Assembly (NCBI GenBank): GCA_002269645.1 | Contig: NIVC01001446.1 | Location: forward strand, 224,579 to 288,578 | DNA from: Macrostomum lignano | Lineage: Eukaryota | Direction of reading: 5' to 3' | DNA: 64,000 nucleotides | In this document: positions 40,701 to 43,700 of the stretch, piece by piece | How the letters are laid out: each line of letters begins with the position of its first letter | Numbering within the stretch: the first letter of the stretch is position 1 | Position numbers and translations under genes: made by a program | The notes under the pieces: model-generated | The model's input: the letters and a program-made list of their open reading frames with translations, nothing else | Database searches by the model: none | Told to the model about the DNA's origin: nothing

Positions 40701-43700
40701 TGCCGGACAGCGACCGAGAATGCCGGGCAGCGGCCGAGAATGCCGGGCAGCGGCCGAGAACGACTGGCAGCGGCCGAAAACACCGGGCAGCGACCGAGAA
40801 CGCCGGGCATGGCCGAGAGTGTTCCCCGCCCTTCCTTCGGGGCCGCTCCCAGTGCCAAACAGAGGGATCACAACGACGATCAGATGAGAGATGGGATGAA
40901 ATGAAGGAGTGAAGGTCTCTTGCCCGCCCTGGCATCCTGCCCCAGAACCCCCTAGACCGCCACCTCCGCCGCCCGGCGCAACAACCCCAACACGCGTCCT
41001 CCGTCGATTAGTTCAAACTGAGGGATCGCAACACTCATGACGAACCGAGTGCTTCGCTTGAAGGCAGGCCGCCGCCAGACACGCCGAGCATGACCCCGAC
41101 ACTTGGCGCTGATGTCACGGAGAATGAACTTGACAGTCTGAGCCAAAAGCTCGGCGATTTCGCGTCGATGATCCAGCCGCTCGCTGCCGCACAGTCCCAC
41201 CATTTCAGTCAAAAGCCGGAACATCGCAGCTGGACTCCCCGACAACAAAGCGTACCGAAGCTCCGACCGGATTCGAGCTCTTCGCTGCGTTGCCTCCCCG
41301 CTCCAGGTGTATTCCACCTCGGTACTCGGCTCGCTCCTCATCAGCCACGCTGGCGACTCCCGTTGGTCGATGACGAGCTCCGGTTCGTCTTCTGACATCG
41401 AAGTTTCGCCGTCGAATTCATTCAAGAGCTCTTCTTCCTCTGACTGCGTGATTTCACAGCAGCTCTGAGCAGTCTCCTCGCCGCCGCAACCACCACGCTC
41501 GCTTCCTTCCGACTCCCTGTCCTCGTCTGACTCTTCTGTTTCGTCTTCAATCGTTACGACAAACTCCTCCGGGACGCACATCCCATCCGGCGGGACAAAA
41601 TACCGGGCGCACTCGAGCGGGTTGCTAACGGCATCCTGCCCGAACCGGTCGTACAGCGCTCGTCGAAACGGACACAGCAGGACCGCACTCGCATGCTGCA
41701 GCCTCTGGAAATTCTCCGTTCCACCGGGTCCACACTTGTCGGGGTGCCGTCGCAGGCTCTCACGGCGGTACGCACGTCGCAGCTCCTCCTCCGTCGCGAA
41801 GGGGCTGACACCAAACTCGGCGTAGAGGTCCATGCCCGGAAAGCAGTGCCTGCAACAACCACGACTCACTTTTGAGAGCAGGGCAATGGTTCCTTCGAGC
41901 CTCTTTGGGGCGCCGATCCTTCATCCCTGATGGCAGGGTTGGGCAGGTGGGACCTCCCCTGACGGGCCTTAAGAGGGGAAATATATATTTTTGTTTGTGA
42001 AGCAGAGGCAATAACACGAGCCCAGTTTTCAATAACGCGGGTGATGACGCAGACGATGCTTCGAACCAAATGTTGACGACGCAGGTGATGACGCGGATGA
42101 TGCTTCGAACCAATTATTTATGACGCAGGAGATGACGCGAATGATGCTTCGAACCACTTATTTATGACGCAGGAGATGACGCGGATGATGCTTCGAACCA
42201 ATTATTTATGACACAGGTGATGACGCGGATGATGCTTCGAACCAAATGTTGACGACGCAGGTGATGACGCGGATGATGCTTCGAACCAATTATTTATGAC
42301 GCAGGAGATGACGCGAATGATGCTTCGAACCACTTATTTATGACGCAGGAGATGACGCGAATGATGCTTCGAACCAATTATTTATGACGCAGGAGATGAC
42401 GCGACACTGCGCACGCACTCACGTCCGCTCTTAATAATACACGGGCGTTCCATAACGCTGCGGAACCCTTCGATCCCTCTGGGGTCGACCTTCGATGACT
42501 TCAACTGGCGCTTCCGGCTGCGGCTGCACTCCTGGCTGCTGCACATCCATTGGTTCTCCCTCCTCTCGAACCCGCCCGGAATGTCGCCACCATCGCTCCT
42601 CATCCTCATCGTCTGATTCCTGCGAGTCCTCCCTGACGGATTCCGTCTCTTGAGCAGGACCTGGGTGGTACCTCCTTGGTGCAGGACGCCGAGGGCCACC
42701 GGTGCCGTCGACTGGGTACTTCCGGTATCGAGGCAGGATGTTGTTAAAGTGCACCACTTTGATCGGCTTCCGTCGACCTTCCTGTCGAATCCTATAGCGC
42801 GTCTCCGACAGCTTCTCGAGAACTACGGCAGGTCCGGTCCAGGGTGAGTGGAGCTTCGCTTTGGCACCGGCCTTCAACACGGGGTTGTAGACGAACACCT
42901 CGTCGCCAGCCACGAATTCTCGACCCTTCACCTTCCGGTCGTACCAGTCTTTCTGCACTCGTTGATATGACGTTATTCTCTCACGCACCACCCGATGGGC
43001 TTCCACGAGCGTCTCCCGCAGGTTCTGGACTTCCTCGCAGTACGGTTCGATGTCCAGTGGGCGCGCCACTCCCAAGTCAACTGGCAGAGACATCTCGCGA
43101 CCATGCAGAAGGAAGAAGGGTGAAAGGCCGGTGCCGCGGTGCACACTGGAGCGATACGCCATGAGCGCCGGGGCAACGAATTCGTCCCACCGCCTCTGAT
43201 CCGGCTCCTTCACCAGGTGCGCCCGGATCACTGCAGTCAGCGTCTTATTGAAGCTTTCCACTTGGCCGTTTCCAGAGGGGTGATAGGCGGTCGTACGCGT
43301 CTTTCGGATATTCAGACTTTCGCACAGCTGGCCGAGCAATTGCGACTCGAAATTGGCTCCCTGATCCGAGTGGATTGTCCCTGGGGCTCCGTAGTGACAG
43401 ACCCACTCCTCGAGCATTGCCCTTGCACAGGTGCTGGCCGTCTGATCTGGCACCGGTACTGCCACTGTCTCGGCTAGTAAATTTAGAGTGCCCGGTAAAG
43501 GACTCATTGCGAAAGGAAGGATCTTGGAGAGACAGAAGATCTTAGAGGGCAATATAAGCATAGCAAGTGACTTACTGACAGATAGACAGCCTGACAGATA
43601 GACAGCTTGACAGACAGACAGCCTGACAGATAGACAGCCTGACAGATAGACATAGACAGCCTGACAGATAGACAGCCTGACAGATAGAAAACCGGACAGA

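Follow-up and report, generated by a model that had tools for sequence, protein, structure and literature searches.

Why does an LTR retrotransposon of Macrostomum lignano carry a J-domain protein in the env position, and what could such a protein do for the element? In the window (the whole stretch of 64,000 nucleotides that was analysed), an open frame that we call ORF3 encodes a J-domain with the signature HPDK, an acidic linker and a basic domain of five helices. The initial annotation had described an intact 293-residue frame with this overall layout, and its description stands: the translation is open, the HPD is present and 29 of the 82 linker residues are D or E. The parts of the protein are as follows.

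40952..41833, minus strand: ORF3, 293 aa (P0001), an open frame translated from 41833 to 40952
41648..41830, minus strand: J-domain, residues 2-62 (Pfam DnaJ, E=1.2e-12, above cut-off)
41738-41746, minus strand: HPD, residues 30-32, in the Pfam DnaJ match region
41531..41647, minus strand: family-specific helical extension of the J-domain, residues 63-101, with conserved G65 and P88 (folded in the AlphaFold2 model)
41540..41560, minus strand: predicted SUMO-interacting-like motif VVTIEDE, residues 92-98 (motif scan)
41300..41545, minus strand: acidic linker, residues 97-178, predicted disordered (pLDDT <50 for 97-174)
40955..41299, minus strand: basic five-helix C-terminal domain with an Arg/Gly-rich loop (pLDDT 90.9 when folded alone; 10-lineage alignment)

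Around ORF3 lie the remains of the element.

42431..43467, minus strand: 3' end of pol, integrase core and C-terminal domain (Pfam rve and Integrase_p58_C; alignment to the complete copy L147)
42030..42400, approximate, no strand: 44-nt tandem array between pol and ORF3 (period 44 also in other family-A copies)
41850..41855, minus strand: splice-acceptor-like TTGCAG, 16 nt 5' of the ATG, of putative use
40140..40830, approximate, no strand: 20-nt tandem array in the 3' untranslated region (period 20 also in other family-A copies)
40059..40076, minus strand: polypurine tract (PPT)
39148..40058, minus strand: 3' LTR, 911 nt, TGTTGT...ACAACA
39582..39614, minus strand: LTR-internal copy of nucleotides 1-33 of the 35-nt host spliced-leader exon (leader sequence from PMC8629364)

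The integrase fragment is co-oriented with ORF3 and ends at 42431, about 600 nt upstream of it. The window copy is 5'-truncated at 43467, with RT, gag and the 5' LTR all absent. The enclosure of ORF3 that had been described is therefore correct for the integrase upstream and the PPT and 3' LTR downstream, whereas enclosure between both LTRs is known from other copies. There were no Rfam matches within 39100-43500. A second copy of the window locus, with the same truncation and flanks and with ATA at the ORF3 start, occurs elsewhere in the genome (G000:C3678; L014, L047-L048) and would be an allele or a duplicate in a redundant assembly. On the plus strand at 37786-38577 lies an exon of a host NT-C2 gene (EEIG1/EHBP1-type); the element is antisense to it, just downstream of its donor-like end, and probably sits in an intron. 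Putative exons of an EF-hand protein, recognised by eye at 34091-34408 and about 37000-37170 (minus strand), are arranged head to head with the NT-C2 gene.

ORF3 is the third gene of a young Ty3/gypsy family of M. lignano, here family A. In complete copies, paired LTRs flank gag, pol, ORF3 and a PPT; in copy C108 the gene order by Pfam is gag, PR-RT-RNase H-IN and then ORF3, and the best solved-structure matches of the RT are to Ty3. The primer-binding site is TGGCGCCCGAACAGGGAC; a tRNA-Lys-type site is a trait of Osvaldo elements. The Gmr1/Osvaldo cluster (PMC12801592) is a candidate affiliation for these elements. Paired LTRs are 98.4-99.9% identical in 7 of 10 other family-A copies, and 4-bp target duplications were found in five. 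A search of the genome with ORF3 returned 145 matches, 15 of them full-length at 98-100% identity (window copy included). All 14 same-length family-A copies are open to the stop, 13 with an ATG start and one with HPY for HPD; a further copy has an in-frame deletion, and seven are disrupted or partial. Single-base indels often disrupt the pol frames as well, so that some of these breaks may be assembly errors. Copy counts are likewise loose, since the M. lignano assembly is redundant (PMC12801592). At one locus (G000:C594; L037-L038) two family-A elements stand in tandem with one LTR in common. A link of these elements to heat shock was considered and dropped: no canonical three-unit heat-shock element lies inside the LTRs of families A-F, and the heat-induced Mlig-id38 begins with a 337-bp LTR unlike theirs.

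Homologues of ORF3 occupy the same position in seven families, A-G, whose RTs are 56-65% identical to that of A; the ORF3 proteins of families B-F are 28-37% identical to the window protein. Of 20 non-A loci, 17 have pol 5' of ORF3 and in its orientation; so do 19 of 25 element-type loci, against none of 35 host-type J loci, all of which also lack the C-terminal domain. In an RT tree of 32 rows all ORF3 carriers fall within one 27-row branch (93/91), and none of the four outgroup loci has an ORF3 match. Trees built from RT, from the J-domain and from the C-terminal domain agree at the level of the five sister pairs. In one family E copy (G000:C506; L138, P0133), labelled a hypothetical protein at NCBI, a deletion fuses RT/RNase H in frame to ORF3.

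Across families ORF3 is under purifying selection, with dN/dS of about 0.07-0.3. The value is 0.24 (CI 0.11-0.43) for the full ORF3 of B1-B2; for the J and C-terminal domains it is 0.09 and 0.15 in A-A2 and 0.09 and 0.20 in C-C2, and the C-terminal domain of F1-F2 gives 0.07. The family D chromodomain described below gives 0.20, and the ORF3 of family G 0.26-0.32. Sister-lineage ORF3 segments all fall below 0.25, with intervals that exclude 1 except for the 66-codon J segment of B1-B2, several dS values in these comparisons being saturated.

ORF3 is thus almost certainly a real gene of the element. A neutral passenger, or a one-off retrocopy of a host gene, would be in keeping with the seven disrupted or partial family-A copies and with family F, where none of the copies examined has a fully open ORF3 frame, but it is refuted by the purifying selection in sister pairs; it also sits badly with the spread over seven families and with the lack of a host gene with the helical domain among the 35 host-type J loci, and we give it hardly any credence. 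The initial annotation had likewise argued for an element gene, neither a retrocopy nor a one-off insertion, and had named a single copy, a dN/dS near 1 or an unrelated insertion as contrary outcomes. Our findings are 15 full-length matches, constrained evolution with HPDK kept in families A-F, and linkage to pol in many families.

In sequence and model the J-domain fits the four-helix J fold with HPD. Its model is helical, with pLDDT about 90, and in the AlphaFold2 model of ORF3 the J-domain and its extension are folded (1-101), the linker is disordered (97-174) and the C-terminus is helical. All eight rows selected from families A-F carry HPDK unchanged. No Pfam match to a G/F region, zinc finger or DnaJ_C was found in P0001 or P0003-P0006, as had been noted for the first two in the window protein; on these sequence features the ORF3 of families A-F would be a class C J-domain protein with predicted Hsp70 stimulation. 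The earlier label "DnaJA-like" did not survive, since DNAJB2, DNAJB1, DNAJB6 and bacterial DnaJ score within ~3 bits of one another and DNAJA1 ~4 bits below the best. The element J-domains were monophyletic in 68% of bootstraps in a first tree and in 6% in a second, from which 12 rows were dropped (9 long, truncated or near-duplicate host rows and 3 element sisters) and to which 4 outside homologues were added; a single clade was not rejected (p-AU 0.41). One truncated host exon (L112) groups with the element J-domains in the second tree at 79/88. ORF3 is not an env, because its 19-residue Kyte-Doolittle maximum reaches only 1.08-1.35 in five families, with no transmembrane segment.

The C-terminal domain, with 23 K/R versus 11 D/E, is the most constant part of ORF3: no other is shared by all seven families, and it includes an Arg/Gly-rich loop. 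As the initial annotation had suspected, it has no known match, Foldseek searches of PDB and BFVD giving none at E<=0.001, a blank that does not show the modelled domain to be a new fold. The best VIA match is to B12-binding cap bundles (Z 8.4, rmsd 2.9, 84 aligned), above the ankyrin repeats of TRPV3 (Z 7.0, rmsd 3.2, 92 aligned). We considered a mimic of MPP8-like chromo-plus-ankyrin proteins, but the fold searches do not support it: both of these matches are within the noise for helical bundles. A profile of the domain, run against 1.84 billion proteins, gave 12 matches, four of them short and repeat-type and eight true relatives, namely two M. lignano proteins and six Logan or JGI proteins, 34-76% identical to the nearest family. 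These outside homologues are known as proteins alone, metagenome scans for them returning no match or generic DnaJ only. A word-index protein search with ORF3 residues 60-293 found none among 2018 candidates, and Atlas gave no usable match.

Between these two domains the linker region takes one of two forms. In family D it contains a full HP1-like chromodomain (Pfam E=1.4e-12, 53/53 positions), whose best solved-structure matches are Swi6 and HP1. At the positions that, by alignment to HP1 and Swi6, would form the H3K9me-binding aromatic cage, two of three aromatics are present in D and all three in D2. Elsewhere the linker carries the motif [IV]xI[SDE]3, presumably of the SUMO-interacting type: this pattern, fixed after the 11 lineages had been inspected, occurs in 9 of them (shuffle frequency 0.7-5% each) and is missing only in D and D2, the chromodomain lineages. 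Out of sample, it is present in three of four chromodomain-free outside homologues, the fourth having VSVSDE, and the single chromodomain-bearing outside homologue lacks it. The strict SUMO-interacting pattern occurs in A and F2 only; what the nine motif-bearing lineages share is its relaxed core. In family A the motif falls in a predicted helix (89-101, AlphaFold2), which weakens the SUMO-interacting reading for that family; a predicted complex of SUMO with linker residues 84-130 (score 0.25, mark 0.34) speaks neither for nor against it. A chromodomain remnant in the family-A linker, plausible by eye, was rejected as no better than shuffles (p 0.28-0.77). In families F and G a further domain is fused to the end of ORF3, with a dN/dS of 0.15 in F1-F2.

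L090:3313-4671 (minus strand), L129:7931-8587 and L248:4739-6451: TatD-DNase-like domain, families F and G (weak Pfam matches, E 5e-5 to 7e-8)

Two families show how far ORF3 can change. Family G has been active recently (LTR pairs 99.7-99.9% identical), and its ORF3, of 551-555 aa with a full frame in 4 of 7 copies, has neither the HPD nor the SUMO-interacting-like motif; its J-domain matches Pfam at only E 0.0026. Since G keeps a selected ORF3 in this state, the protein must do more than stimulate Hsp70 and bind SUMO. Family H, the sister of G and nested in the ORF3 clade, is also recently active, and there was no ORF3 match in any of its six copies, five of which have LTR pairs 97-100% identical. 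Transposition can therefore proceed without ORF3 in at least one family, unless H relies in trans on that of another. In five family H loci (L244, L245, L267, L269, L272) some 1.5 kb devoid of ORF3 similarity lie between integrase and 3' LTR, and this interval holds a conserved frame of 160-250 codons, possibly a replacement cargo.

ORF3 also seems to move between elements. In C-C2 and D-D2 its dS is 1.1 to >1.8 versus an RT dS of 0.15-0.2, an excess of silent divergence that points to exchange of the ORF3 cassette between related elements. Between D and D2 (L072 and L127) the last 50 ORF3 codons are nearly identical (dS 0.14) and the remainder is saturated, which would place a recombination breakpoint within the helical domain. 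Dispensability and swapping together appear as expected of a conflict gene.

These observations bear on one conceivable use of a J-domain, that of a cytoplasmic co-chaperone for Gag assembly or for folding of RT and integrase. Hsp70 takes part in capsid assembly, and the invariance of HPDK in families A-F would fit such a helper. However, ORF3 is lost in the active family H and lacks HPD in the active family G, it appears to be exchanged independently of pol, and chromatin-type modules would be superfluous for the task. We therefore consider this role improbable, and particle assembly or RT/IN folding, which the initial annotation had put forward, is not supported as the main function.

How ORF3 is expressed may offer a further clue. 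A YYNYAG acceptor motif lies within 26 nt of the ORF3 start in six of six families (background 0.03-0.15), and one was also seen by eye before the ORF3 start of family G. In family F (L090/L133/L129) there is no ATG at the ORF3 start but an acceptor followed by TG, and the LTRs of F1 and F2 contain a donor-like A|GTAAGA; splicing of the two would create the ORF3 ATG. The host resolves operons through leader trans-splicing (PMC8629364), which would be a second possible route to an ORF3 RNA. Four runs from four studies, presumed to be RNA in keeping with their huge spliced-leader signal, cover both gag-pol and ORF3; no spliced ORF3 RNA was found, the contig running unbroken across the acceptor in all four, where assembled contigs drop rare forms.

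The spliced-leader copy is confined to family-A LTRs (38 of 150 loci) and lacks the final TG of the leader's ATG; the runs show a depth and loose-end signature at it.

L147:8861-8901: spliced-leader copy in the LTR region of the complete copy

The copy may stem from reverse transcription of trans-spliced element RNA, or be leader mimicry. Four high-depth joints to it were rejected as element splicing, their short side being only 20-22 letters, and are taken as host trans-spliced transcripts with a chance match.

A protein made from spliced RNA recalls a different function, in which unspliced genomic RNA would be the ligand of the basic helical domain, and Hsp70 would remodel the RNP for nuclear export, much as Rev or CERV acts. 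This would account for the helical domain and its Arg/Gly-rich loop being the sole part kept in all seven families, and for the conserved acceptor motif, and it has a precedent in the CERV protein of C. elegans Cer1, which comes from a spliced mRNA and is needed for export of genomic RNA (PMC10309623). It leaves the HP1-like chromodomain and the SUMO-interacting-like motif unexplained, and family H has transposed recently without any ORF3; we regard an export factor as unlikely.

Taken together, the chromodomain, the SUMO-interacting-like motif, the TatD-like fusion and the splice-acceptor-like motif point towards a nuclear, chromatin-directed role. With this in mind, the explanation that we prefer is that ORF3 acts in the nucleus as an adaptor that would recruit Hsp70 to repressed chromatin and there counteract silencing of the element. 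On this reading, ORF3 would be translated from a subgenomic RNA produced by splicing or trans-splicing at the acceptor just 5' of its start. The basic helical domain would serve as the constant core, attaching to a host factor or to the DNA or RNA of the element, and the SUMO-interacting-like motif (in most families) or the HP1-like chromodomain (in D) would dock the protein on silencing chromatin, SUMO-rich or H3K9-methylated. There the J-domain would stimulate Hsp70 through its HPD, and the repressive complex would be pulled apart, as Rb-E2F is by large T, so that the element escapes repression. In flies, SUMO and H3K9me are both part of transposon silencing, and SUMO-SIM contacts recruit SetDB1 in its piRNA-guided form (10.1101/533091); polyomavirus large T breaks Rb-E2F with an HPD J-domain and a short motif (PMC8894888). 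We favour the anti-silencing adaptor because the linker holds either a SUMO-type motif or an H3K9me-type reader, each of which would address a silencing mark, and because of the large T precedent. It is a possible reading, held at somewhat less than even confidence. More tentative is its sharper form, a chromatin-targeted Hsp70 disassemblase whose interchangeable readers, SUMO motif or chromodomain, would be swapped in an arms race with SUMO/H3K9me silencing. Against an anti-silencing role stand the loss of HPD in G, the helical family-A motif, the missing chromodomain remnant and spliced RNA, and the lack of a fold match for the helical domain. The tandem arrays, conceivably binding sites of the VANC type, occur in families A and C only, and clade-wide VANC-like sites were accordingly dropped.

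The same modules could serve other ends. Chromodomains of LTR elements have a role in integration targeting, and the chromodomain or motif of ORF3 might steer the integration complex to chromatin while Hsp70 uncoats or disassembles it; ORF3 would then do as a separate protein what its chromodomain does for a chromovirus integrase. LTR elements are known to carry chromodomains as accessory domains (PMC6338049), and ORF3 directly follows integrase; yet every intact copy examined has ORF3 in a frame of its own, the sole pol-ORF3 fusion being the deletion copy C506, and we find such a helper rather unlikely. Alternatively, ORF3 could be a passive decoy, which would leave piRNA loading or silencing short of Hsp70 or of SUMO or HP1 sites and would not itself remodel anything. 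The HPD-less family G and the weakly scoring TatD-like domains do look like pseudo-enzymes, but a few element copies would hardly titrate abundant Hsp70, and strict conservation of HPDK suggests catalytic use, which makes a decoy very improbable. The initial annotation had raised silencing in this decoy form; the link with silencing fits the chromatin-directed modules, though as active targeting.

Non-env ORF3s are already known as a kind, and the J-domain is a new cargo class for the env position. Full-text literature searches found no description of a J-domain ORF3 among the papers listed, of which one, on a Chlamydomonas genome, contains the term 'DnaJ domain', although Repbase, Dfam or the 2020 M. 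lignano LTR classification may note the frame. The main text of the 2025 M. lignano LTR paper mentions no DnaJ, ORF3 or chaperone, and portions of its supplement label elements with PR, RT, RH and INT only; the main text of a J-protein survey does not mention transposons (PMC10410713). Even under a rival mechanism, our finding adds this cargo class and an unnamed helical domain. M. lignano is a transgenic-tractable model, and its families provide a natural comparison: motif (A-C, E, F), chromodomain (D), no HPD (G) and no ORF3 (H).

The closest parallels in position are the non-envelope ORF3s of bdelloid rotifer LTR elements, which encode a GDSL esterase or a DEDDy exonuclease (PMC5408684). 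Like these, the Macrostomum ORF3 is a separate, family-specific and modular frame between pol and the 3' LTR that is gained and lost; bdelloid-type ORF3s can also hold two domains in one frame and are typically spliced (PMC5408684). The Macrostomum cargo differs in combining a J-domain, a chromatin-type module and the helical domain, with a nuclease-like part (TatD-like) in F and G only. Cer1 CERV is likewise an accessory protein of an animal LTR element, nuclear and made from spliced RNA; it is required for genomic RNA export and has no reported J-domain, whereas ORF3 can be lost (PMC10309623). As in chromoviruses, a chromodomain lies downstream of the integrase core (PMC6338049), but here it stands in a separate ORF3 between J-domain and helical domain, in family D and one outside homologue only. 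ORF3 and the N-terminus of polyomavirus large T are laid out alike, each with an HPDK J-domain that continues into an acidic linker bearing a short motif, and each in a genetic parasite (PMC8894888). Unlike large T, ORF3 belongs to a retroelement and shows no LXCXE motif and no origin-binding or helicase domain, and its helical domain found no significant match in the BFVD fold search. In its supposed effect it resembles VANC of Arabidopsis VANDAL elements, an accessory protein that the element encodes and that has been proposed to lift silencing from members of the same family, though VANC belongs to a DNA transposon and acts on DNA methylation through short tandem motifs (PMC6719617), and the tandem arrays of the ORF3 elements are not clade-wide. 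According to a review, elements mostly evade rather than block silencing, and the plant VANC is perhaps the most convincing transposon-encoded suppressor (PMC6719617). As a J-domain protein with modules of chromatin type, ORF3 offers a concrete candidate for active counter-silencing by an animal element and, if the model is true, would be a protein system against silencing that an animal retrotransposon itself encodes.
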